Positions 8,458 to 59,092 of a stretch of 64,000 bases of DNA are shown here, in pieces. The stretch's first letter is position 1, and every line of letters begins with the position of its first letter. The notes beneath the pieces were generated by a model, which saw only the letters and a program-made list of their open reading frames with translations, was not told the origin of the DNA and ran no database searches. The position numbers and the translations under genes are program-made. Source of the stretch: an uncultured Actinomycetes bacterium (GTDB lineage: Bacteria; Actinomycetota; UBA4738; HRBIN12); assembly GCA_963765865.1 (NCBI GenBank), contig CAVXYE010000018.1, forward strand, positions 458,476 through 522,475. The letters are read 5' to 3'.

Positions 8458-9456
8458 TCAGACGGCTCGGAGCGGGGCGGGTCGGGTCACGTGCTGGACC
8501 TGCCCGGGGAGCGTCACCACGAAGCGAGCGCCGCCGCCCGGCCGGTCCTCGACCCGGGCGGTCCCGCCATGCAACTCGGCGAACCGCTGCACGAGCGACA
8601 GACCGATGCCCACTCCGCCACGTGCACCCGCACCTTGGCGGAAGGGTTCGAAGATCTCGTCCTTGACGTCGTCGGGCACCCCGGGGCCCTCGTCTTCGAC
8701 GACGACGACCACCCCCTTGTCCCGTTCGGTGACGACCACCTGCACGGCGGTCCCGGCGGGGGTGTGCCGGGCAGCGTTGTTGAGCAGGTTCTCCACGATC
8801 CGCTCGACCTTCGCTCGATCGACGTCGACGAGCATCGGCTCGCTCTCGATCCGGACCGGGTGTCCCGAGAGCGACGGAAGTTCCAGAGCGAGGCGGTCCG
8901 CCAGTTCGCCGACATCGGTGGGCTCACGTTCCGGCTGGAGCTGGCCGCGGCGGAGCCGGTCGAGGTCGAGGAGGTCGTCGACCAGGCGCGACGCCTTCCT
9001 TCCTGCCTGTTCGATCACGCCGTAGAGATCGTTGAGCTCGACGCCCGTCAGCTTGAGCTGGTCGGCGCGGCGGATCGTCTGCATCGCGCCGAGGATGCCC
9101 GCGAGCGGACCTTTGAGGTCGTGCGAGACCGCGTGGAGCAAGGTGTTCTTCATGTCGTTCTGCGCTCGCAGGTCGTCCGAGACCTCCTCCTGCGACTCGA
9201 GCTGCGAGCGCTGGCGCTTCGCATGGTCCCGGATGATGGCGAGGAGCCAGACCACGAACAGGAACACCGCGTACCAGACGAGGGCGTTCCACGACGGAAC
9301 CAGGACGTTCGTCTCGACCGACCGGACATCCGCGAGCTGCATCGCGACGGCGGCGAGACCGGCCACCAGGAAACCCCATGCGCGCCCGAGGTTCCAGGTC
9401 GCGATCAAGATGGGAAGCACGTAGAAGGGCGCGATCGAGACGTTCGGGCCGATCAT
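8458..9456 (-). CDS. sensor histidine kinase (3-TM sensor, HisKA, HATPase_c)
   Basis: H-box LLHAVSHDLKGPL. N, G1 and G2 boxes (NLLNNAARHT, EDEGPGV, GIGLSL). Start set at MIGPNV. An alternative upstream frame (to about 9580, GTG with GAGGA RBS) encodes another TM helix, so the true N-terminus may be longer. Confidence 0.75.
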   Translation of the reverse strand: MIGPNVSIAPFYVLPILIATWNLGRAWGFLVAGLAAVAMQLADVRSVETNVLVPSWNALVWYAVFLFVVWLLAIIRDHAKRQRSQLESQEEVSDDLRAQNDMKNTLLHAVSHDLKGPLAGILGAMQTIRRADQLKLTGVELNDLYGVIEQAGRKASRLVDDLLDLDRLRRGQLQPEREPTDVGELADRLALELPSLSGHPVRIESEPMLVDVDRAKVERIVENLLNNAARHTPAGTAVQVVVTERDKGVVVVVEDEGPGVPDDVKDEIFEPFRQGAGARGGVGIGLSLVQRFAELHGGTARVEDRPGGGARFVVTLPGQVQHVTRPAPLRAV

Positions 9457-9648
9457 GTGAGTCGGCGACACCGACGCCGACGACGAACAGGACGGCCACC
9501 GCGAGCACGTACGCCGGCGGCCGCCCCGAAAGGAACGCTTCCAGCGGAAGCGCCCGCCTGTCGCGATGATCGACGTCCACGGATGAGTCCTCGGCGAGCC
9601 ACGCATCTACCTTGAGTTCGGTAGGCGCCGCAGCCGATGACCGGAAGG

Positions 9649-10251
9649 TCAATCGCCGGTCAGAAGGGCGCGGATGGCCCGGAACGCTCTCCCGCGGTGG
9701 CTGATCCGATCCTTCTCGCCGGGCTCGAGCTCGGCCATCGTCCGGTCCCAGCCCACGGGCACGAAGATCGGGTCGTACCCGAAGCCACCGGTACCGCGAG
9801 GTTTCGTGGTAAGGGCTCCCTCGCAAAGACCCTCGACCGAGATGAGCTCCCCGCCCGGAGCCACGAACGCGGCCACGCACCGATAGCGGGCCGTGAGACC
9901 GGCGGCCGGGATCCCCCGGACCGAGCGGATCAGCTCGGCGAGGTTCCGCTCGTCGGTCGCGTCCGGACCCGCGAACCTGGCGCTCCTCGGGCCCGGCCGC
10001 CCTCCGAGCGCGTCGACCTCGATCCCCGAGTCATCCGCGAGGGCAGGGATCCCCACGGCATCCGCGACGGCTCGAGCCTTGAGGGCCGCGTTGTCGAGGT
10101 AGGTCTCCCCCGTCTCGTCGACCTCCGGGAAGGTGCCCGCGTCACGGTCGTGAACCGTGACCCACTCCACCGGCCAATCCGAGCAGATCCGGATGATCTC
10201 GACGAGCTTGTGCTCGTTCTTCGTCGCGAGCGCGATCCGTCGGCGGAAGCG
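9649..10251 (-). CDS. rdgB: RdgB/HAM1 non-canonical purine NTP pyrophosphatase
   Basis: RIALATKNEHKLVEI...SGIEVDALGGRPG..FGYDPIFVP. No canonical in-frame start. The ATG at about 10252 is out of frame by 1 nt (possible indel). Confidence 0.75.
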   Translation of the reverse strand, partial: RFRRRIALATKNEHKLVEIIRICSDWPVEWVTVHDRDAGTFPEVDETGETYLDNAALKARAVADAVGIPALADDSGIEVDALGGRPGPRSARFAGPDATDERNLAELIRSVRGIPAAGLTARYRCVAAFVAPGGELISVEGLCEGALTTKPRGTGGFGYDPIFVPVGWDRTMAELEPGEKDRISHRGRAFRAIRALLTGD

Positions 10252-10262
10252 CCATCCGGGCT

Positions 10263-10979
10263 TCAGATACCCAGCGCCTCGGCCTGGATCTTCGTGAGCT
10301 CCGCGATCCCGGCCGCGGCGAGGTCGAGCAGCTCGTCGAGCTGCGGCCGGGAGAACGGCGAACCTTCCGCGGTCCCTTGCACCTCCACCAGCGCGCCGCC
10401 GCCGGTCATCACCACGTTGCAATCGACCTCCGCACCCGCGTCCTCCTCGTAGCAGAGGTCGAGACGGGGCTCACCGTCCACGATGCCGACCGACACCGCC
10501 GCGACCGAATCCTTCAACACCTCGGCCGGGGCTGGACCATCGGTCAAGCTCCGGAGGGCCAGGGCGAGCGCGATGTAGCCGCCCGTGATCGACGCCGTCC
10601 GGGTGCCCGCATCGGCCACCAGGACGTCACAGTCGACCGTCACGGTGCGCTCGCCGAGCCGTTCGAGTTCCGTGACGCTCCTGAGCGCCCGGCCGATCAA
10701 TCGCTGGATCTCCTGCGTGCGACCGCCCGGCTTCCCCCGGTTCACCTCGCGGCCGGACCGTTCCACGGTCGATGCGGGGAGCATCGAGTACTCGCCCGTG
10801 ACCCACCCACGACCCGTCCCGCGGAGCCAGCGTGGCGTGTCCTCCGACACCGTCGCCGCACAGAGCACGCGCGTCTTGCCCATGGAGAACAGCACGGAGC
10901 CGTTCGCCCACTCCTGATAGCCCAGCTCATAGCTCACGGGCCGGAGCTGCCCGTTGGCCCGGTCGTCGGGGCGGGTCAA
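10263..10979 (-). CDS. rph: ribonuclease PH
   Basis: TTG start with GGGAGA RBS, overlapping the upstream stop (TTGA). RPDDRANGQLRPVSYELGYQEWANGSVLFSMGKTRVLCAATV is the classic RNase PH N-terminus. Confidence 0.85.
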   Translation of the reverse strand: MTRPDDRANGQLRPVSYELGYQEWANGSVLFSMGKTRVLCAATVSEDTPRWLRGTGRGWVTGEYSMLPASTVERSGREVNRGKPGGRTQEIQRLIGRALRSVTELERLGERTVTVDCDVLVADAGTRTASITGGYIALALALRSLTDGPAPAEVLKDSVAAVSVGIVDGEPRLDLCYEEDAGAEVDCNVVMTGGGALVEVQGTAEGSPFSRPQLDELLDLAAAGIAELTKIQAEALGI

Positions 10980-11728
10980 CGGCCGATCTCCCACACCGCG
11001 TCGCGCGTCGCGACGTCGATCGGACCGTCGAACACCCGAGCCGCCTGTTCGAGCGAGACGCCGGGGTCGAGCGCAGGCGTCAGATGCGTGAGCACCAATC
11101 GGCGAACCTCGGCCCGCGCGGCGATCTCGGCCGCCTGCTCGGCACTGAGATGGAAGAAGGTGTGATCCATCGGGTCTTGATAGGTCGCCTCGCACAGGAA
11201 CAGGTCGGAGCCGCGGGCCAGCTCGATCGCCTCGTCGCAGGGGCCCGTGTCGCCGGTGTAGGCGAGCGTGTGGCCGTTCACCTCGATCCGGTACCCGAGC
11301 GAGTACACACCGATGTGGGTCATCTCGAAGGCCGTCACACGGAACGGCCCCACCTCCACCACACGCCCGGCGTCCAGATGGTCGAACGCGTACGCCTCGG
11401 CCATGACGTTCCGGCCGTTCTCCGAGACGAGCAACGCCGCAAGATCCATGAACCCGGCCGGCGAATAGAAGGGAAGGCCCGGCTGACCGAGATCGCCGTA
11501 ATGCCGCGCGTAGAACGCCGGGATCACATCGAGGAAGTGGTCCGCATGGCCGTGCGTGATCAGCACCGCATCGATCTCACCGGGCGCGACGTGCTCCTGC
11601 AAACGGGCGAAGGTGCCCGTTCCCGCGTCGAGCCAGAGGTGGAAGGACCCACTGGTGACGAGGTAGCCGCTGCACTCCCCCGCTGTTCCCGGCCACGTTC
11701 CGTGAGAACCCAAGACCGAGAGCCTCAC
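10976..11728 (-). CDS. MBL-fold metallo-hydrolase
   Basis: HxHxDH motif (ITHGHADHF). 4-nt overlaps with both neighbours. Confidence 0.75.
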   Translation of the reverse strand: MRLSVLGSHGTWPGTAGECSGYLVTSGSFHLWLDAGTGTFARLQEHVAPGEIDAVLITHGHADHFLDVIPAFYARHYGDLGQPGLPFYSPAGFMDLAALLVSENGRNVMAEAYAFDHLDAGRVVEVGPFRVTAFEMTHIGVYSLGYRIEVNGHTLAYTGDTGPCDEAIELARGSDLFLCEATYQDPMDHTFFHLSAEQAAEIAARAEVRRLVLTHLTPALDPGVSLEQAARVFDGPIDVATRDAVWEIGR

Positions 11729-12534
11729 GAGCGACCGCCCGCTTCGAGGTGGACGGCCTTGACGTGCGCCAGCTCGCGACCCAGGAAGAGCTCGGCATGG
11801 TCCCGGAACGGCTCGGCGTCTCCCGTCGTCAGGAACTCGTGGTGAGGGGGTGTCGGTTCATCGCGGAGGCTCCCCGCCCGAAGGAGCTCGGCGTAGACGT
11901 CCTTCGCCGTCTCCTCCGCGGAGGACACGAGCACGACATCGGGGCCGAGCTCCAGCTGGAGCAGCCCCGAGAGCAGCGGGTAGTGCGTGCAGCCCAAGAT
12001 CAACGTGTCGATCCCCTTCTCCTTCAGCGGTGCAAGATACCTGCGCGCGGCCTCCCGCAACTCCTCCGACGTCGTATCCCCGCGCTCCACATGCTCCACG
12101 AACACCGGGCAGGCGGCCCCGTGGAGCTCCACGACCGACCCCACCGCGCGCCGGTAGGCCCCGGCGTCGATCGTCGCGGTCGTCCCGATCACCCCGACCA
12201 CGCCGTTCCTGGTTGCTCGGATCGCGGCGCGGGCCCCTGGGTTGATCACCCCGACGACGGGGACCCCGTGCGCGGTCGCGATGTCGCCGATGGCGGAGAC
12301 CTCGATGGAATTGCACGCCACCACGAGCAGCTTGACGTCCCGCTCGACGAGGGACGCCGCGATCTCCATCGCGAACCTCCGGATCTCCTCGACCGGTCGC
12401 GGACCGTAGGGGAAGTTCGCCGAGTCCCCGACGTAGATCAGGGACTCGTTCGGCAACAACTCGAGGATGGCCCTCGCCACCGTGAGGCCACCGACGCCTG
12501 AGTCGAACACGCCGACCGGTCGGTTATCCGACAC
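11725..12534 (-). CDS. murI: glutamate racemase
   Basis: VGVFDSGVGGLTVARAI...VVACNSIEV...LGCTHYPLL. Confidence 0.85.
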   Translation of the reverse strand: MSDNRPVGVFDSGVGGLTVARAILELLPNESLIYVGDSANFPYGPRPVEEIRRFAMEIAASLVERDVKLLVVACNSIEVSAIGDIATAHGVPVVGVINPGARAAIRATRNGVVGVIGTTATIDAGAYRRAVGSVVELHGAACPVFVEHVERGDTTSEELREAARRYLAPLKEKGIDTLILGCTHYPLLSGLLQLELGPDVVLVSSAEETAKDVYAELLRAGSLRDEPTPPHHEFLTTGDAEPFRDHAELFLGRELAHVKAVHLEAGGRS

Positions 12535-12537
12535 GTG

Positions 12538-13470
12538 CTACCACCACAGCGACTCCTCGACCCCTCGCTCAGCCGCGGAGAGATCCTCCGCCCAGGCGTG
12601 CGTCGACAGGTACTTCCACCCGCCGTCGGGCAGGAGACACACGATGTCGCCACCGTCGAGCTCTTGGGAGATGCGCTGTGCGACGTGGATCACCGCGCCG
12701 CTGCTGATCCCCGCGAAGATCCCCTCCCGCGCCGTGAGCTCCCTCGTCGCGTGCAGGGAGTCGGCGGCGTTCACCAGGAATTTCCGGTCGATCTGCTCGG
12801 GGTCGAAGATCGGCGGGATGAACCCTTCGTCGAGCGAACGCAGCCCGTACACCAGATCGCCCAGCTCGGGCTCGGCCGCGACGACCTTGATCTGCTCGTT
12901 GTACGCATGGAGCCCGCGCCCGGCACCCGTCAGGGTTCCGCCGGTCCCCATGCCGGCGACGAAGTGCGAGATCGTCGGAAGGTCGCGGATGATCTCCTGC
13001 GCCGTCCCCTTCTCATGCGCGTCGGGGTTGGCGGGGTTCCCGTACTGGAAGGGCATGTAGTACCGGTCGTCGGTCGCGAGCGCGCGCGCGACCTCGATCG
13101 AGCCGTTCGTCCCCTTCGCTCCGTCCGATAGGACGATCTCGGCCCCGAACAATCGCAGGAGGCCGATCCGCTCCTCGCTCGCGTTGTCCGGGATCACCAC
13201 GGTGAGCTTGTATCCCTTGCGGCGTGCCACCATCGCGAGCGCGATGCCCGTGTTGCCCGACGTTGGCTCCAGGATCGTTCGTTCGGGCGTCAGCTCGCCC
13301 GAGCCCTCCGCCGCCTCCACCATGGCGAGGGCGATCCGATCCTTCGTCGAGCCGGTGGGGTTCTGCCCTTCGAGCTTGGCCCAGATGCGGACGCCCGGGG
13401 CGGAGGACATCCTGGGGATGCCGACGAGCGGCGTGTCCCCGATGGCATCCAGGATCGAGTCGAAGCGCAC
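12538..13470 (-). CDS. cysK: cysteine synthase (CysK/CysM family PLP enzyme)
   Basis: PLP lysine motif PTGSTKDRIA. GNTGIALA and SSGA motifs. Confidence 0.8.
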   Translation of the reverse strand: MRFDSILDAIGDTPLVGIPRMSSAPGVRIWAKLEGQNPTGSTKDRIALAMVEAAEGSGELTPERTILEPTSGNTGIALAMVARRKGYKLTVVIPDNASEERIGLLRLFGAEIVLSDGAKGTNGSIEVARALATDDRYYMPFQYGNPANPDAHEKGTAQEIIRDLPTISHFVAGMGTGGTLTGAGRGLHAYNEQIKVVAAEPELGDLVYGLRSLDEGFIPPIFDPEQIDRKFLVNAADSLHATRELTAREGIFAGISSGAVIHVAQRISQELDGGDIVCLLPDGGWKYLSTHAWAEDLSAAERGVEESLWW

Positions 13471-13525
13471 GATCCGGGATTATCTCAGCGCGCGGCGGCG
13501 AGCCGTTGCGCGCCGCAACCGATCC

Positions 13526-13939
13526 TCATCCAAGAACCCACCACGGGGTGTCGATCGTCGTCGAGCCTGGGTCGTTCGCGTCCTCGTACAGGAGCCTGGC
13601 GGCTCGATGACCCGCGTCGCTCAGCATCCACATCCGGGTGAGACCCGCGGCTCGACCGTCCTCGGCGAAAGCATCCAGGAGCTGCTTGCCGACCTTCGTC
13701 GATCGCACCGCCTCCGCCACCTGGAGGCTCGCGAGGAGTAGGAAAGAGCCACCGTCCGGCTGCGAGAAGGTTGAGCCCCACGCGAAGCCGACGACGGTCT
13801 CGCCGTCGGTCGCGACGTAGGCGAAGCCGCGTCCGTCGGCGAGGAACGCCGGGTTGGGGCGGCGCTCGAAACCGCGGAAGGCACGCACCGCGGCTTCGAG
13901 CGCCGCCCCATCGTTCGGGCCGAGCCTACGGATCTCCAC
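13526..13939 (-). CDS. GNAT family N-acetyltransferase
   Basis: 137 aa, acetyl-CoA binding region (VGKQLLDAFAEDGRAAG). Confidence 0.6.
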   Translation of the reverse strand: MEIRRLGPNDGAALEAAVRAFRGFERRPNPAFLADGRGFAYVATDGETVVGFAWGSTFSQPDGGSFLLLASLQVAEAVRSTKVGKQLLDAFAEDGRAAGLTRMWMLSDAGHRAARLLYEDANDPGSTTIDTPWWVLG

Positions 13940-14011
13940 AGGTGGGAGCTTGCCCCAACCGTGGGGGCGGCGCCAGGCTCGACGCGACTACGGGCAGGAT
14001 CGGGATCCGGC

Positions 14012-14975
14012 TCACCGCCAAGGCAGCGCGGCGCGTTCTGCCCAGTAGCGCTCGGGAGGCTGCGCGAGCTCGTTCATCGCCGCGAGCGCATCGTCGGGAA
14101 GCATCACGTCCACCGCCGACGCATTGCTCCGGACCTGCTCGACGGTCACCGCGCCCGACAGGACGACATCGGCCCACGGTTGCGCGTGGACGGCCGCGAG
14201 CGCGACCCGATCGGGCGTCGTCCCGAGCCGGCCGGCCACACCGCCGAGCGGCCCATCGGTCGCCGCGAGCCGACCGTTCGCCATCGCTTCCTTGATCAGG
14301 ACGCCGCGCCCGTCCGCGTGAGCCTCCGCCAACGCGGGACCGGCCGAAGGCTCCAGCACGTTCCAGGTCGACTGAACCGTCGAGAAGAGCGGTTCGCCAT
14401 CGACCCGCTCCTGGAGACCGCGAACGATCGCGTCGGCCTGCTGCGGACCGCTCGTGGAGAACCCGAGGAACAGGCCCGACTCCCGGAGCGAGCGGAGCTC
14501 ATCGAGCACCGCACGATCGTCGAACACACCGCTCTCGATGGTGGCGGAGTGGATCTGGTAGAGCGACAGGTGATCGCCCAGGAGCCGCCGCGACTCCGCG
14601 ATCTGCCGCCGGAGGGCGGTGACCGAGAGGTCCTTCACCTCTTGGACGTCGGCGTCGAGCCTCCATCCGCCCACGTAGGTGTATCCCCACTTCGATCCGA
14701 CGACGACATCGTCCGGATCGCGCGGTGGCGAGCCAGTCGCCCAGGAACGCCTCTGCATCTCCGTAGGAACGAGCCACGTCCACGTAGCGAACGCCGACGT
14801 CGTACGCGGCGTCGAGGACGTTATGGGTGCGCGCCTCCATCGCAGCGCGCGATCGCGCCAGCCCGAGGTCCCGATCACGTCCGACGTCGATGTACGCGGG
14901 ACGCCCGAGCGCGGCCAGCCCGAGCCCGATCCGAGAGACGACAAGCTCTGTTCCCCCGAGCCGTCGACGCTCCAT
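14012..14975 (-). pseudogene. aldo/keto reductase; apparent frameshift near 14700
   Basis: N-terminus MERRRLGGTELVVSRIGLGLAALGRP...DAAYDVGVRYVDVARSYGDAEAFLG in one frame. Remainder (VGSKWGYTY...LSLYQIHSATIESGV...) in another. Confidence 0.7.
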
Positions 14976-14997
14976 CTCGTCGCGGGGTCCCGCCCGA

Positions 14998-16416
14998 TCA
15001 CGTCTGCCGGTTGAACCAGATGCTCCCGGGCCCCGTCGAGAAGCTGGCGCCCTGCCCCGAGACCGTCACGCTCTTCCCGGCGTTGGTGATCGCGATCCCG
15101 TCATAGTCGCCGTAGTAGGACGTGAAGCCGTTCGCCCCCTTGTACGGAGCCCCTGACGTGGCGTCGGAGATCCGGAGCGGCGCCGACCACGTCGTGCCGC
15201 CGTCGCCGGAGGCGCGGTACCAGACGTTCCAGGAGCCCGTGCTGTTGTCCATGTAGGTGATCCGGAAATCGCCCGAGCCCTTCGCCGCGATCGCGGGGAA
15301 GCTGCCGTTCGCCGCCGCGTTGCCGACCTCGACCCTCCCCGACCACGTCACGCCACCATCGGTCGAGCGCCGGGTGAACACATGATTGTTCGCGCCCTGG
15401 GTCGTCGCCCCGGAGTACTCGATGACCAGAGCCCCCGACGCATCGGCCGCGATCGTCGTCGTGGACGACGTCTCGAAGTTGACCCCGGTGAAGACCGTGT
15501 TGTCGACCGTGACCTTGGTCCACGACGCCCCGCCGTTCGTGCTCCGCCACACCTCGATCTCCACGGGGCCGGCGGTCTTGACGCTTCCGCCCGAGTACTT
15601 GGAATCCGAGAGCACCGCGGTGCCGTTCGCCAGCACGACGAAGCCGTTCGGGTAGCGGTACACGCTCGAGTCGGTGTTCACCGCGACCGGGGTCGAGAAC
15701 GATGCCCCCGCGTTGTGCGATGACGTCAAGAAGAGTTGGCTGCGGCTCTCGTAGGCGACGTAGACGTCCGTCCCGTTCGCGCTCGTCGCCATCCAGGGCT
15801 TGTCCGCCCAGCTCTTGCCCGACACCTTGAGCGGTGTCGACCATGTGGAGCCGTGGTTCGTGGACTTGGAGAACACGATCGTGTTCGAGTTCATCCACGT
15901 TCCGTAGACGGCGCCCGACGCCGTCGTTGCGAGCACGGGGTCCCACTGGCCCGCGACGCCGCTGCACGTGCAGATCGGCTTCTCCGCAGCCCACGTCTGC
16001 CCGCCGTCGGCGGAGATCCGGATCTCCATCTGCGGGTTCGGGCAGTGCTGACACGTGATGCCGTAGCGGTTGTAGAGCGCGTAGACGTATGGGGCCGAGG
16101 GATCGGCAGCGACGTATGGCTCCCACGTGTCGTCGTTCGCGATCTGGACCTCGCCCGCCCAGCCCGTCGCGGCCAACGCGGAGGGGTCGAGGACCCGGCG
16201 CCGGATACTGATGGTGCCCGCGTGGTTCTCAGCAGCGGCATCAGGGTCACCACCCTCCTCGAGGCCCTCGGAGTCCTGACCTTCCGATGCCGGCTCGTCG
16301 TTGTGATCGGCGGTCGATGCCGCCGCGACGGCAGGGGCGTTCCGCGTCCTCAGGAACAAGGTCGCTCCCGCGGCGACGACCACGACGACGACGGCCAACA
16401 CGACGTACCTGCGCAT
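14998..16416 (-). CDS. membrane-anchored BNR/sialidase-like (exo-alpha-sialidase / glycoside hydrolase) protein
   Basis: N-terminal TM anchor. Multiple SxDxGxTW BNR repeats (STDGGVTWS, SGDGGTTWS, STNGGASWT). Confidence 0.65.
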   Translation of the reverse strand: MRRYVVLAVVVVVVAAGATLFLRTRNAPAVAAASTADHNDEPASEGQDSEGLEEGGDPDAAAENHAGTISIRRRVLDPSALAATGWAGEVQIANDDTWEPYVAADPSAPYVYALYNRYGITCQHCPNPQMEIRISADGGQTWAAEKPICTCSGVAGQWDPVLATTASGAVYGTWMNSNTIVFSKSTNHGSTWSTPLKVSGKSWADKPWMATSANGTDVYVAYESRSQLFLTSSHNAGASFSTPVAVNTDSSVYRYPNGFVVLANGTAVLSDSKYSGGSVKTAGPVEIEVWRSTNGGASWTKVTVDNTVFTGVNFETSSTTTIAADASGALVIEYSGATTQGANNHVFTRRSTDGGVTWSGRVEVGNAAANGSFPAIAAKGSGDFRITYMDNSTGSWNVWYRASGDGGTTWSAPLRISDATSGAPYKGANGFTSYYGDYDGIAITNAGKSVTVSGQGASFSTGPGSIWFNRQT

Positions 16417-16532
16417 GCGCCCCTCCCGACTCGGTCTCCGGTTCGCGACGCGAACCTAGGACGCGACGGAGGCGGGCGCGAATCGCGGGATGACCGATGG
16501 TCACTCCGCCGCTCGTCCCTCCTGACCTTCGG

Positions 16533-16895
16533 CTAGGAGCCGCTCTTGGCGTAGTTGCTCGCGCCGAACCAATCCACGACGACGACCGGCTCATCGCCGA
16601 GGACCCACGCGTCGTGTCCGCTCGGCAGTGACGTCACATCGCCCGGCTCGGCGACGAACTCCGTGCCGTCGTCCATCCGGATCGCGAGCTTCCCGGCGAC
16701 GTGGTACTGGAAATGGGGTGCCTCGCAGCTCGGCGTCTGCGCGATCGGCTTCACGTCGGTCGACCAGCGCCACCCCGGCTCGAACACGAGCCGTCCGATC
16801 TCGGAGTCACCCACCTTCAGGATCTCCGCGTGTCCGTTCGGGAACTCTCGGAGCTCGTCCGGCTCACCGAAGTCCCTGTGCTCGGTCTGCTGCAT
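16533..16895 (-). CDS. cupin domain protein
   Basis: Start at MQQTEH with GGAGG RBS. Divergent from the TetR gene. Confidence 0.6.
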   Translation of the reverse strand: MQQTEHRDFGEPDELREFPNGHAEILKVGDSEIGRLVFEPGWRWSTDVKPIAQTPSCEAPHFQYHVAGKLAIRMDDGTEFVAEPGDVTSLPSGHDAWVLGDEPVVVVDWFGASNYAKSGS

Positions 16896-16932
16896 CTCGA
16901 CCACTCCTCCCGATCCTCGACAGGGTGTATCC

Positions 16933-16950
16933 TTACTTACTAGTAGGTCA
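16933..16950. promoter_or_regulatory. candidate TetR operator (AT-rich palindrome core TACTAGTA) in the divergent cupin/TetR intergenic region
   Basis: cttacTTACTAGTAggtca stands out as an AT-rich near-palindrome in a GC-rich genome, placed between divergent starts. Confidence 0.3.
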
Positions 16951-16987
16951 GAAGTCAACCGTCACGAAGAGGGAAACTGCGCGAGCG

Positions 16988-17569
16988 ATGGGAGCGACCG
17001 AGGTGGACACCGCGACCCAGATCCTCGATGTGGCCGAGCGTCTGGTGCAGGAACGCGGCTACAACGGATTCAGTTACGCCGACGTCGCCAGCGAGCTCGA
17101 CATCTCGAAGGCAGCGCTCCACTACCACTACCCCGGCAAGGCGGAGCTCGGCGAAGCACTGATCGAGCGGTACGCGACGCGGTTCGCGGAGGCGCTCGTG
17201 GCCGTCGACGCCCGCGGGATCGACGCGGCCGAGAAGCTCCGCGCGTACGCGCAGCTGTACGCGGAGGTGTTCCGAGACGATCGGATGTGCTTGTGCGGGA
17301 TGCTCGCCGCCGACTACGCGACCCTGCCCGAGCCGATGCGCGAGCGGGTCGTGCGGTTCTTCGACGACAACGAGGTCTGGCTGACCCACGTGCTCGAAGA
17401 CGGCCGCGCGGCGCGGACCCTGCGTTTCCAGGGACCCGCTCGGAGCGTCGCGCGAACGCTGGTCGGCGGACTCGAGGGCGCGATGCTGGTCGCGCGGCCC
17501 TACAAGGACATCAAACGGTTCCGATCAGCAGCATCGCTGCTGATCGATGGTCTCGCGGTCGAGCGCTAG
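16988..17569 (+). CDS. TetR/AcrR family transcriptional regulator
   Basis: HTH QERGYNGFSYADVASELDISKAALHYHYPGK. Confidence 0.8.
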   Translation: MGATEVDTATQILDVAERLVQERGYNGFSYADVASELDISKAALHYHYPGKAELGEALIERYATRFAEALVAVDARGIDAAEKLRAYAQLYAEVFRDDRMCLCGMLAADYATLPEPMRERVVRFFDDNEVWLTHVLEDGRAARTLRFQGPARSVARTLVGGLEGAMLVARPYKDIKRFRSAASLLIDGLAVER

Positions 17570-17860
17570 GCGCGGGCGGCGCTCCGCGCCGCCCGCCACC
17601 GCGGGGAGGATCGAGACGACGTCGCCGTCCGCGACGGCGGTCTCGAGCGAGCCCAGGTAGCGCACGTCCTCGTCGTTCACGTAGACGTTGATGAAGCGGT
17701 GCAAACCGCCCCCCTCGGCCAGGACGTTCTTCGTGACGCCCGGATACCGTGACTCGAGGTCCTTCAGGACCTCCTCGAGCGTGGCCCCTTCGACGGTCAC
17801 CCGCGCCTCGTCACCGGCGAACTTGCGGAGGATCGTTGGGAGTTTGACGGTCACGGGCAT
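17525..17860 (-). CDS. cysO: MoaD/ThiS/CysO-type ubiquitin-like sulfur-carrier protein with a 20-aa extension after Gly-Gly
   Basis: MPVTVKLPTILRKFAG...HRFINVYVNDEDVRYLG...ILPAVAGG, then the same frame continues AERRPRLALDRETIDQQRCC before the stop. Overlaps the TetR 3' end by 45 bp. Confidence 0.7.
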   Translation of the reverse strand: MPVTVKLPTILRKFAGDEARVTVEGATLEEVLKDLESRYPGVTKNVLAEGGGLHRFINVYVNDEDVRYLGSLETAVADGDVVSILPAVAGGAERRPRLALDRETIDQQRCC

Positions 17861-17875
17861 CGGTTCAGCAACTCC

Positions 17876-18709
17876 TCATCCGGCTCGGGCGGGGACGCCG
17901 CAGAACTGCTCGTAATCGATCAACTCGGTGATCGTCGGATCCTTGCCGCACACCGGGCAATCGGCGTCCCAGCGGATCTTCATCTCTTGGAAGTCCATGG
18001 TGAGGGCGTCGTACAGGAGCAACCGGCCCTCGAGCGTGTCGCCCTCCCCCGTGATGATCTTGATCGCCTCGGTCGCTTGGATCGATCCGATCACGCCCGG
18101 CAGGACACCGAACACGCCACCCTCGGCGCAGCTCGGGACGGTGCCGGGCGGCGGCGGAGCCGGGAACAGGCACCGGTAGCACGGCGTCTCCTGACCGGGC
18201 ATGAACACCGTCGCCTGGCCTTCGAACTGGTAGATCGAACCGTACACGAGGGGCTTGCCCGTGAACTGCGTCGCATCGTTGACGAGGTAGCGGACCGGGA
18301 AGTTGTCGGTGCCGTCGACGATCACGTCGTAGCCCTCGAAGATCTCGAACACGTTCGTCGAGAACAGCAACGTCTCGTGGCCTACCACCTCGATCGTGGG
18401 GTTGATCGCTCGGAGGTGATCGACGGCCGAGGCCACCTTCGAGCGGCCGACGTCGGCCGTGGTGTGCAGGATCTGGCGCTGAAGGTTGGTCACATCCACC
18501 TGGTCGAAGTCCACGATGCCGAGCTTGCCGATGCCGGCGGCCGCCAGGTACATCGCGACGGGGGAGCCGAGTCCGCCGGCGCCGATCACCAAGACCGAGC
18601 TGTCGAGGAGCTTCCGCTGACCCTTGCCGCCGATGTTCGGCAAGATGATGTGGCGCGAGTAGCGTTGCACCTGCTCTTCGGTGAACATCGGCGGCGTTGA
18701 GGCGCTCAT
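17876..18709 (-). CDS. moeB: MoeB/ThiF/MoeZ-type E1-like adenylyltransferase (no rhodanese domain)
   Basis: VLVIGAGGLGSP nucleotide loop. CxxC...CxxC zinc motif. Confidence 0.85.
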   Translation of the reverse strand: MSASTPPMFTEEQVQRYSRHIILPNIGGKGQRKLLDSSVLVIGAGGLGSPVAMYLAAAGIGKLGIVDFDQVDVTNLQRQILHTTADVGRSKVASAVDHLRAINPTIEVVGHETLLFSTNVFEIFEGYDVIVDGTDNFPVRYLVNDATQFTGKPLVYGSIYQFEGQATVFMPGQETPCYRCLFPAPPPPGTVPSCAEGGVFGVLPGVIGSIQATEAIKIITGEGDTLEGRLLLYDALTMDFQEMKIRWDADCPVCGKDPTITELIDYEQFCGVPARAG

Positions 18710-19158
18710 GCGATCGAGAGCTCCTCTTCCGTGATCGCACCGTCCCGGATCCAGAACGAGCGAGCGATCGGATCCGTCCGGTCGGCGAGCGACACGACGA
18801 TGTATCGAGCGTCCGGATAGAACGCGAGCCGCGTGTCCGTCTCGCTCGGGTACGCGTCCGAGTGCGTATGGGAATGGTAGATCGACCAGAGGTCCCAGCC
18901 GCGCTCATCGAGCTCATCGAACACCTTGAGCTGCTCCTTGCCGTCGAGGCGGTAGGTTGCCGGGCTCGCGTCGGCGTTCGTCATCGGGAAGACCTTCACC
19001 GGGACGCCGGCCTCCGCCGCGATCAGACCGCAGCATTCGTTCGGGAATTCGCGGAGCGCCTGCTCCACGATCTCTTTGAAGAGGACGCCGTCAAGCTCGG
19101 TCACGCTTCGTCTCCGGGAGGTCGGCCGGACAGGCGCAGCCGCCTGTTGCAGGTGCAA
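18706..19158 (-). CDS. mec: Mec+/JAMM (MPN) family metalloprotease
   Basis: JAMM motif E...HSHTHSDAYPSETD. 4-nt overlap with moeB. Confidence 0.8.
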   Translation of the reverse strand: MHLQQAAAPVRPTSRRRSVTELDGVLFKEIVEQALREFPNECCGLIAAEAGVPVKVFPMTNADASPATYRLDGKEQLKVFDELDERGWDLWSIYHSHTHSDAYPSETDTRLAFYPDARYIVVSLADRTDPIARSFWIRDGAITEEELSIA

Positions 19159-19177
19159 ATGCTACCAGCGGGGTGGG

Positions 19178-20206
19178 TTATTCCCGGACCCGTCCGATCA
19201 CGGTGATCGACCCCGGTGGACCCGGCACGACCTCGCCGATCTCGGTGAACAGGTCCGTGGACGGGCTCCGATCCGAAGCCACCAGGAGTCCTCCACTCGT
19301 CTGCGCGTCGGCCAACACGATCTGTTCGGGCGGTGTGAGCTCGCCCCACTCGGTGACCTCCTGCAGCCAGGCGTGGTTGCGCTTGGTCCCGCCGGCGACG
19401 ATGTCTCGTCTGGCCAGGTCGAGCACCGTCGGGAGGAGCGGCACGGAACCCGCGTTCACGATCGCAGCGCACCCGCTCGCGTCCAGCATCTTCCTGAGGT
19501 GCCCGAGGAGGCCGAACCCGGTGACGTCCGTCCCCGCTCCCACGCCGGCCGAGACCATCGCGGCGGACGCGTCCGCGTTGAGCGCAGTCATCGTGTTCAC
19601 CGCGAGCCGGGCGACGTCTTCGTCCGTCTGCCCGCGCTTGATCGCCGTCGTGATGAGCCCGGTCCCGATCGGCTTCGAGAGGTACAGATGCATCCCCGGT
19701 CGTGCCGTGGAGTTGCGGACGATCGCGTCCGTCTCGACGAAGCCGATGGCCACCATCCCGAACAGCGGTTCTCGCTCGGTGGTGATCGTGTGCCCGCCGA
19801 CCACCGCCGCGCCGGCCTCGAGGACGATCTGGCGAGCACCCGCCAAGACCTCGGCGAGCAGCTCGAGCGGGAGCTCGTCGACCGGCCATCCCGCCACGTT
19901 CAAAGCGAGCCGCGGCGACCCGCCCATCGCGTACACGTCACTGAGTGCGTTGGCGGCCGCGATCCGGCCCCAGTCGCCGGGGTCGTCGACCAACGGCGTG
20001 AAGAAGTCGAGGGTGAGCACCAGTCCGGTTCCATCCGTGAGGCGGTACACGGCGGCGTCATCGCCGGTCTCCTCCGACACGAGGACGTCCTCAGGCTTCG
20101 TGGTCGGGCCGAGCAGATCGAGCACCCGCGTGAGCTCCCGCGGGCCGAGCTTGCACGCGCATCCCGCCCCGTGGCTGAACGACGTGAGGCGAAGCGCTTG
20201 CACCAT
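19178..20206 (-). CDS. selD: selenide, water dikinase (selenophosphate synthetase), Cys form
   Basis: N-terminal SHGAGCACK (Cys at the Sec/Cys position), DAAVY, PurM-like fold. Stop of fabI and this ATG are arranged TGAtcATG. Confidence 0.85.
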   Translation of the reverse strand: MVQALRLTSFSHGAGCACKLGPRELTRVLDLLGPTTKPEDVLVSEETGDDAAVYRLTDGTGLVLTLDFFTPLVDDPGDWGRIAAANALSDVYAMGGSPRLALNVAGWPVDELPLELLAEVLAGARQIVLEAGAAVVGGHTITTEREPLFGMVAIGFVETDAIVRNSTARPGMHLYLSKPIGTGLITTAIKRGQTDEDVARLAVNTMTALNADASAAMVSAGVGAGTDVTGFGLLGHLRKMLDASGCAAIVNAGSVPLLPTVLDLARRDIVAGGTKRNHAWLQEVTEWGELTPPEQIVLADAQTSGGLLVASDRSPSTDLFTEIGEVVPGPPGSITVIGRVRE

Positions 20207-20208
20207 GA

Positions 20209-20983
20209 TCAGACCAGGTCCGTCCCCATCGCATGGAACCCCCCGTCGACGTGCACGACCTCACCCGTGATGCCCGACGAGAGGTCCGACAGGAGGAACG
20301 CGACGGTGTTCCCCACCGGGGTCGGGTCCTCCACGTCCCAACCGAGCGGCGCGCGACGGCTCCACGAACCGCTGATCTGATCGAACCCCGGGATGCCCTT
20401 GCCCGCCATCGTCTTGATCGGGCCGGCGCTCACCGCGTTGACGCGGATCCCCTTCGGACCGAGGTCGCGGGCGAGGTACCGCGTGACGGATTCGAGACCG
20501 GCCTTGGCGACGCCCATCCAGTCATAGATGGGCCATGCCACGGTCGCATCGAAGTCGAGCGACACGATCGCGCCGCCGTCGCCCATCGACGGCAGCAGCC
20601 CGACCGCGAGCGCCTTCAGTGAGAACGCGCTGGTCTGCACGGCTGTGGCGACGCTGTCCCAGGGCGTATTCAGGAAATTGCCTCCCAACGCATCTTGGGG
20701 GGCGAAGGCGATCGCGTGGAGGAAACCATCGAGGCGTCCCCATCGCTGTTGGAGCTCTTCACAGACCGCGGCGATCTGCTCGTCGGAGTTCGCGTCCATC
20801 TCCAGGACGTCCGGCGTCGTGGGGAGCCGCTTGGCCGTCTTCTGGGTGAGGCTGACGGTGCGTCCGAAGTTCGTCAGGACGATCTCCGCGCCCTGCTCCT
20901 GAGCGGATCTTCGCGGCCGCGAACGCGATCGACTGCGGCGTGAGCACGCCGGTGATCAGCAGCTTCTTCCCCTCCAGCAGCAT
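20209..20983 (-). pseudogene. fabI: enoyl-[ACP] reductase FabI/InhA; apparent 1-bp insertion near 20905
   Basis: MLLEGKKLLITGVLTPQSIAFAAAKI then out of frame. Removing one C restores ...AQEQGAEIVLTNFGR... joining the InhA-like C-terminal ORF (SAGPIKT...VHVDGGFH). Confidence 0.8.
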
Positions 20984-58741: not shown

Positions 58742-59092
58742 GGTGGAGGTGGCGGGATTCGAACCCGCGTGCTCGGGCGACCATCTGGGGCTTCTCCGGG
58801 CGCAGCCGGCGTATGGATCTCACCTCGGGGTCTCCACCGGCGGAAGGCCCCTCGGCCAGCCCGGGTGCGATGTCCCGCGGTGGCCCCCAGGCGGAGCCCT
58901 CGCGGTGAGCCTGCTCAGTGACGCCCGTACCCCGACCGCAGGCACACGGGGCGGGCGGCTACCTAGAGACTAGGCAGCGAGCGCGAACTCGTCGTTGGCG
59001 CTTGTGTTGGTCCGGCGTTTTACGTGACATCCGGGATCACGGCCCGCTTCACCCAGACGGTTATCCGTCCGAGTCGAAACCAGTACACCCCC
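58742..59092 (-). ncRNA. ssrA: tmRNA (SsrA), tag peptide ANDEFALAA
   Basis: Minus-strand RNA begins GGGGGUGUACUGGUUUCGAC and ends ...GGUUCGAAUCCCGCCACCUCCACC (the terminal A is not encoded). The 7-bp acceptor pairs with the 5' end. Internal reading frame GCC AAC GAC GAG TTC GCG CTC GCT GCC TAG. Adjacent to smpB. Confidence 0.85.

Follow-up and report, generated by a model that had tools for sequence, protein, structure and literature searches.

The window, by which we mean the whole stretch of DNA analyzed here (64,000 nucleotides, from an uncultured Actinomycetes bacterium), carries on its minus strand a block of four genes, namely selD, a JAMM protease gene, an E1 gene, and the gene of a sulfur-carrier protein. 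The first of these, selD (19178..20206, minus strand), encodes selenide, water dikinase, and is a canonical selD, with a TIGR00476 score of 367.8 bits (cut-off 125) and an N-terminal HGAGCACK loop. It is followed by a gene (18706..19104, minus strand) for a Mec+-like metalloprotease of the JAMM/MPN+ class, 132 amino acids as called (Prok-JAB, E 5.8e-21), whose best match in the PDB is 2kks_A (E 2e-22) and whose NCBIfam desampylase match reaches only 65 bits against a cut-off of 130. Its JAMM motif, read from the translation as NECCG...HSHTHSDAYPSETD with the portion HSH-THSDAYP-S-ET-D, is intact in the form E...HSH-x7-S-x2-D and fits the consensus E-x(n)-H-S/T-H-x7-S-x2-D (quoted in PMC5925218). 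This gene overlaps by 4 bp that of the E1-like adenylyltransferase (17876..18709, minus strand; 277 amino acids), a protein of the MoeB/ThiF type (Pfam ThiF, E 5.3e-85; 1jw9_B, E 5e-58) that scores above the cut-off of the NCBIfam MoeB subfamily, contains two CxxC motifs, and is without a rhodanese domain; the E1 gene ends 15 bp ahead of the carrier. That a JAMM protein is co-encoded with the carrier had already been claimed in an earlier, sequence-only reading of this DNA and is confirmed by the profile match and the intact motif, with the E1 as a further partner. The carrier thus has E1 and JAMM genes directly upstream and, about 4 kb downstream, a gene (12538..13470, minus strand) for a CysM of the O-phosphoserine sulfhydrylase type, which matches M. 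tuberculosis CysM (3dwg_A, E 2.7e-97) with 329 bits, as compared with 243 for the next cysteine synthase. In many relatives cysM follows the carrier directly; here, it has been displaced by inserted genes.

Convergent with the carrier lies a gene for a TetR-family regulator (~17003..17569, plus strand; Pfam TetR_N and TetR_C_13), 188 amino acids long as called in relatives L003-L007. It is paired with a cupin-like gene (16533..16895, minus strand; 120 amino acids, with a weak Pfam Cupin_2 match below the gathering score), and the pair is wedged between the carrier and the downstream genes; the two genes also occur together in L002, L003-L007, L010, L011, L077, L089, and L090. No intrinsic terminator or promoter was found between carrier and TetR in a search of 16400..20400. 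Strains vary structurally between the cupin-like gene and the GNAT and cysM genes (12538..17003 in the window, compared with L003-L007): a BNR-repeat protein (14998..16416) is present in the window and in L005, the site being taken in other strains by a histidine kinase, a response regulator, and a DoxD-Rieske gene, and an aldo-keto reductase gene (~14012..15001) is kept across the window and L003-L007. Farther downstream, the order cysM (PALP), Asp/Glu racemase, MBL-fold protein, RNase PH, and Ham1-like protein is found both in the window (~9000..13470, minus strand) and in L003 (15947..19767), and presumably matches that of M. tuberculosis Rv1336-Rv1341. CysO, Mec+, and CysM of that species are Rv1335, Rv1334, and Rv1336, respectively, and from the match in gene order the locus would be the positional ortholog of mec-cysO-cysM, across distant Actinomycetota.

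The carrier ORF (17525..17860, minus strand) encodes 111 amino acids, MPVTVKLPTILRK...DGDVVSILPAVAGG and then AERRPRLALDRETIDQQRCC, before a TGA stop codon. Residues 1-91 (17588..17860, minus strand) correspond to a sulfur-carrier core of the CysO type ending SILPAVAGG, in which the codons of Gly90-Gly91 occupy 17588..17593. The Pfam ThiS profile (PF02597) matches residues 5-91 (E 1.3e-18) and is followed to its final position, while the NCBIfam moaD_arch and SAMP1 matches both stop at residue 91. The best PDB match is M. tuberculosis CysO (3dwg_C, E 5.5e-27), which, like the Amycolatopsis carrier 4n6e_B, aligns end-to-end with residues 1-91, and both of these chains terminate at the Gly-Gly that matches G90-G91. 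Both glycines are invariant in alignments of 25 and 61 sequences, and all columns that are invariant in the family alignment are intact in the window carrier. An AlphaFold2 model built with 61 sequences gives the core a pLDDT of ~90 and the secondary-structure elements of a beta-grasp fold. By three independent definitions, those of the Pfam, NCBIfam, and PDB alignments, the beta-grasp domain ends at residue 91, with 20 residues beyond it, and the central claim of the sequence-only reading, that a CysO-like carrier here does not end at Gly-Gly, is thereby upheld. With respect to subfamily, the NCBIfam SAMP1 score is 63.3 bits against a cut-off of 60, and the PDB comparison gives 97 bits for CysO as opposed to ~24-28 for the H. 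volcanii SAMP1 chains and 33 for a Methanosarcina SAMP1 homolog; judged by these scores, the gene would encode a CysO ortholog, belonging to the CysO subfamily of ThiS/MoaD-fold carriers. The translated product lacks a free C-terminal Gly-Gly, being extended by 20 in-frame codons, and could therefore acquire one only via processing.

The tail, AERRPRLALDRETIDQQRCC, is encoded with its stop codon at 17525..17587 on the minus strand (codons 17528..17587, TGA 17525..17527) and is conserved neither in sequence nor in frame. Its first six codons (17570..17587) take up an 18-nt former spacer, and the last 14 together with the stop (17525..17569) run antisense to the 3' end of TetR, the TAG stop of which is at 17567..17569. 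The resulting overlap, 17525..17569, measures 45 bp, exactly as first proposed, and involves the last 15 TetR codons, stop included. Frame reading of the spacer likewise agrees with the earlier remark that neither of the alternative frames offers a stop directly after Gly-Gly: no frame does, as the +1 frame runs into a TAG about six to seven codons on, which lies in the CTAG palindrome at the end of TetR, and the +2 frame stays open for 24 codons. A programmed frameshift to the TAG of the +1 frame is unsupported, as the relatives use plain ORFs in each of the three frames. No special cause is needed for the length of the tail, because stop codons are rare in all frames of the window, which has 69% G+C; they make up 1.1-1.4% of codons in every frame, and at this frequency the probability of at least 20 codons before the next stop, once the original stop is lost, is 0.67-0.79. 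In the AlphaFold2 model, residues 90-111 have a pLDDT below 50 at all but two isolated positions and form no secondary structure, and the tail is accordingly predicted to be disordered.

The origin of the tail can be approached through relatives that possess the same convergent TetR gene and stop their carrier at or near Gly-Gly: in L010 and L011, the carrier ends GG-TGA, 4-10 nt ahead of the TetR stop; in L077, it ends GGGG-TAG, the CTAG being common to the TetR stop; and in L014, it ends GGS-TGA. From these four it follows that the ancestral carrier stopped at or near Gly-Gly and that the window lineage lost the stop, and the tail, by this comparison, originated by stop loss. Insertion of the TetR cassette was considered as the direct cause, prompted by L001, which is without TetR and ends GG-AP-TAA, and was rejected because the same four relatives retain the convergent TetR along with a stop at or near Gly-Gly; the stop was lost later, within the spacer.

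How common such extensions are was surveyed in 80 species-representative genomes, all of them uncultured Actinomycetota MAGs. No residue follows Gly-Gly in 38 species, one does in 17 (R, C, S, or A), two in 20 (RR, QG, AP, RG, and others), four in one, and 16-29 in four, and none of these four long tails resembles that of the window; put differently, 75 of the 80 species have at most two residues after Gly-Gly and 42 have at least one. Of the closest protein clusters, 117 that keep the end motif intact were compared, and 61 of these have a tail, which reaches at least 10 residues in 13 and a maximum of 84. On these counts, the family tolerates tails. Ends of 0-2 residues nevertheless exceed chance expectation, and since they are so strongly preferred, long tails may carry some cost, or may be processed inefficiently, without being lethal. 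JAMM and E1 genes lie directly upstream of the carrier wherever upstream sequence of the relatives is available, so that all relatives that can be compared in this respect have a JAMM, and the comparison set holds no JAMM-less carriers. Six species (L025, L041, L043, L048, L050, and L058) encode exactly one Cys after Gly-Gly, and what they encode is exactly the CysO-Cys adduct on which Mec+ acts as a hydrolase (for the pathway, see PMC3227635), so that in these species one cysteine would be set free whenever a newly made carrier matures.

Several described systems bear on what may become of such a tail. Each catalytic cycle of the M. tuberculosis pathway includes a cut by Mec+ at the bond that follows Gly-Gly, by which cysteine is released, and the rhodanese domain of MoeZR supplies the sulfur (PMC3227635). 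The window resembles this CysO/Mec+/CysM system in that its carrier and CysM find their best PDB matches there and in that a JAMM gene is adjacent, and it differs from it in four ways: M. tuberculosis CysO ends at Gly-Gly, whereas the window carrier has 20 extra residues; the rhodanese-bearing MoeZR is encoded elsewhere in that genome, whereas the window E1 is rhodanese-less and sits inside the operon; selD precedes the window operon; and cysM is set apart by inserted genes. The carrier, JAB, E1, and cysteine synthase together also recall operon types 4c and 4d of Iyer, Burroughs, and Aravind (2006), although type 4c has its E1 fused to a rhodanese domain, which is absent from the window E1 (PMC1779556). 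Carriers encoded with residues after Gly-Gly beside a JAMM gene, as in the window, are known from the biosynthesis of thioquinolobactin, in which QbsE has CF after Gly-Gly and QbsD is the JAMM, and of chuangxinmycin, in which CxnE has SEAARAEESR and is accompanied by CxnF; the neighboring JAMM has been proposed or shown to expose Gly-Gly in these pairs, in the case of CxnE/CxnF proposed (PMC5925218). These carriers serve secondary metabolism, however, and the window tail is twice as long as that of CxnE, overlaps a convergent gene, and demonstrably differs in frame from strain to strain. Fusions of a Ubl with MoaE also occur naturally, MoaX being an example. HvJAMM1 cuts a linear SAMP1-MoaE fusion exactly after Gly-Gly, removing a whole domain, and this cleavage is required for activity (PMC4443979). 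The likeness to the window consists in a JAMM/MPN+ protease and a MoaD-like beta-grasp protein extended past Gly-Gly; the difference is that HvJAMM1 belongs to the archaeal desampylase subfamily and that the part appended there is a functional domain, not non-coding read-through. The sequence-only reading had cited trimming of only two residues, in the QbsE/QbsD case, and such a limit is too narrow in view of the decapeptide proposed for CxnE and the cut SAMP1-MoaE fusion; still, the closest published cases involve 1-10 residues or a different JAMM subfamily, compared with 20 residues here. Two things alone are unusual in the window, namely how long the tail is and that it overlaps a convergent gene, both being due to the loss of a stop in G+C-rich DNA, and the carrier is otherwise of a known kind.

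Taken together, these observations make it likely, in our judgment, that the gene encodes a CysO carrier with a stop-loss tail that is kept functional by JAMM trimming after Gly-Gly; like the JAMM-processed precursors of the QbsE, CxnE, and HcyS type, it combines residues after Gly-Gly with a co-encoded JAMM whose E...HxH-x7-S-x2-D motif is intact. The carrier would serve the protein-thiocarboxylate route to cysteine that is formed by Mec+, CysO, and CysM. The carrier stop codon was removed by a small change in the spacer, a very short one, that separates the Gly-Gly codons from the TetR stop, and translation now continues through six codons of the old spacer and 14 more, antisense to the 3' end of TetR, before it meets a chance TGA. 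The 111-residue primary product would be an inactive precursor; the JAMM, whose normal job would be to release cysteine from CysO-Cys, would clip by the same activity whatever follows Gly-Gly, and trimming to 91 residues would free the Gly-Gly carboxylate, which the adjacent E1 could then adenylate. We infer cleavage by the JAMM from the precedents described above and from the purifying selection that still acts on the core where relatives bear a tail, and consider it the likely mechanism. The sequence-only prediction of a pro-protein activated by the neighboring JAMM is thus retained as the best reading, with the cleavage step itself carried over from precedent. A more speculative reading, which we think improbable, is that long tails make activation of the carrier JAMM-dependent, a crude zymogen-like gate. 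An alternative to trimming by the JAMM is that a general protease or carboxypeptidase removes the tail and the JAMM only hydrolyses CysO-Cys. A tail predicted to be disordered would be exposed to such enzymes, and it is by analogy that the window JAMM is linked to long tails; however, activation requires exposure of exactly Gly91, which non-specific trimming would overrun, and JAMMs of related systems cut precisely after Gly-Gly whatever follows (PMC4443979, PMC5925218), which leads us to consider removal by a general protease unlikely.

The stop loss might instead have inactivated the carrier, leaving either a decaying gene or an unactivated beta-grasp partner, with cysteine made via another route. 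A blocked Gly-Gly cannot be adenylated, and the window lineage has ~4 kb of inserted genes between carrier and cysM, both of which would fit inactivation. Against this, the 91 codons of the core show 11 silent and 0 replacement changes between the window and L088, and the dN/dS of the core is 0-0.36 in comparisons with close relatives (0.07-0.36 with L090, L002, and L089; 0.14-0.36 for L089/L002). Purifying selection on the core is thus strong among the relatives that bear a tail, and a pseudogene is rejected by these ratios; in addition, the family-invariant columns are all preserved, and the JAMM and E1 genes are intact and tightly packed with the carrier. Inactivation is, on this account, very unlikely.

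The same relatives speak to the suggestion, also made in the sequence-only reading, that the tail or its terminal Cys-Cys could itself be functional, whether as a metal or persulfide site, as a regulatory pro-peptide gating activation, or as a docking element. The tail does persist in several strains, Cys is chemically apt in a sulfur-transfer protein, and the six species with a single Cys after Gly-Gly may be cited in favor of such a module. In L088, however, the carrier of which is 97% identical in protein sequence to that of the window, there are three substitutions within the 45-bp overlap, and all three are silent in TetR (...DIKRFRSAASLLIDGLAVER-stop, unchanged), while all three replace residues of the tail (Ala to Pro, Arg to Gly, and Cys to Ser), which then ends ...QQGSC, with Ser-Cys in place of Cys-Cys. 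For 11 silent and 0 replacement changes in the core against 0 silent and 3 replacement changes in the tail, a Fisher test gives p ~0.003. Two further close relatives use wholly different frames: a 2-nt deletion in the 18-nt spacer gives L089 an unrelated tail of 24 amino acids, and a 1-nt deletion in the spacer gives L002 an unrelated tail of 28, both tails ending at other chance stops and both leaving the end of TetR (...LAVER-stop) unaltered. The C-terminus of TetR (...SLLIDGLAVER-stop) is identical in five relatives despite changes in the DNA. Because TetR-silent changes replace tail residues and the relatives use all three frames, the tail sequence, by these comparisons, is under no selection of its own; the overlapping DNA is constrained by the TetR frame only, and any of the three frames does equally well for a tail. 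Across the family, moreover, most species have no tail or one of 1-2 residues, the other long tails are unrelated, and the window tail is predicted to be disordered. Function of the Cys-Cys or of the tail sequence is therefore not supported; the comparison with close relatives and with the 80 species largely refutes a functional module, which we regard as very unlikely. Orthologs, which the sequence-only reading had proposed to check for the same tail, show it in part: L090 and L088 have one of the same frame and length, whereas L089 and L002 read other frames and the family as a whole mostly has 0-2 residues.

An origin of the tail in errors of sequencing or assembly, the true gene ending at or near Gly-Gly, deserves virtually no weight and is rejected: although the spacer is G+C-rich and indel-prone and some assemblies with the locus contain broken genes of the kind typical of indel errors, five separate ENA assemblies, in which the contigs measure from 142 kb to 1.5 Mb, yield the identical 111-residue carrier, a tail of the same frame and length is present in the JGI contig L090 and the SPAdes contig L088, which come from independent short-read metagenomes, the protein clusters nearest to the carrier comprise 46 (P0001) and 131 (P0002) sequences, and a stop right after Gly-Gly is available in no frame. 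The split frames in some long-contig assemblies, namely TetR in L004 (10170..11369) and SelD in L006 (7600..8760), are probably indel errors of long-read assembly; as genes are split in this way, frame calls from single assemblies of G+C-rich DNA need cross-checking, and it was for this reason that independent support was sought in L090 and L088. Of the outcome that had been named as pointing to an artefact, the part concerning relatives is realized, in that orthologs ending GG-stop exist, and the tail is nonetheless reproducible in the window lineage.

The conserved presence of selD upstream is a more curious feature than the tail. Over the loci compared (the window, L008-L087, L091, and L092), all relatives whose sequence reaches far enough upstream retain the order selD-JAMM-E1-carrier, even where SelD identity is as low as 64%, and the flanks on both sides vary; in one species, L072, 3.6 kb of DNA has been inserted between selD and JAMM. 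In the more distant relatives L091 (6388..6999) and L092 (475..1083), a gene of ~203 amino acids without a Pfam hit ends 1-2 bp ahead of selD, a position that is occupied in the window by a FabI-like gene (20209..20982). Searches of the literature found no published link of SelD to CysO, MoeB, or sulfur carriers, and SelD does not occur in the text of Iyer et al. on operon types (PMC1779556). No tRNA gene, including tRNA-Sec, was found within the 64-kb window, only a tmRNA gene (58742..59092, minus strand; tag peptide ANDEFALAA). One may conceive of selD, JAMM, rhodanese-less E1, and CysO, with or without CysM, as a functional unit in which SelD would provide the carrier with its activated chalcogen: CysO-AMP would be attacked by selenophosphate, or by a thiophosphate analogue, and become a CysO seleno- or thiocarboxylate, which CysM together with the JAMM would turn into free selenocysteine or cysteine, no tRNA being involved. 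This is a speculative proposal that we think improbable, and selD might be merely a neighbor inherited within one clade.

For the reading of such loci, our analysis sounds a note of caution, in that a carrier that looks blocked in a G+C-rich genome can be the plain read-through product of a lost stop. Such read-through would be tolerated because the pathway already has an enzyme that cuts after Gly-Gly, a cleavage carried over to the present locus by analogy, and annotators should call genes of this type neither pseudogenes nor novel fusion proteins. The use of three frames among near-identical strains amounts to a natural experiment, according to which JAMMs of this class would have to be indifferent to the residues after Gly-Gly, a property that would be useful in Mec+-type enzymes as tools for traceless tag removal. 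The tail itself opens no new mechanism, and it is the selD linkage, should it prove functional, that would merit experimental work.
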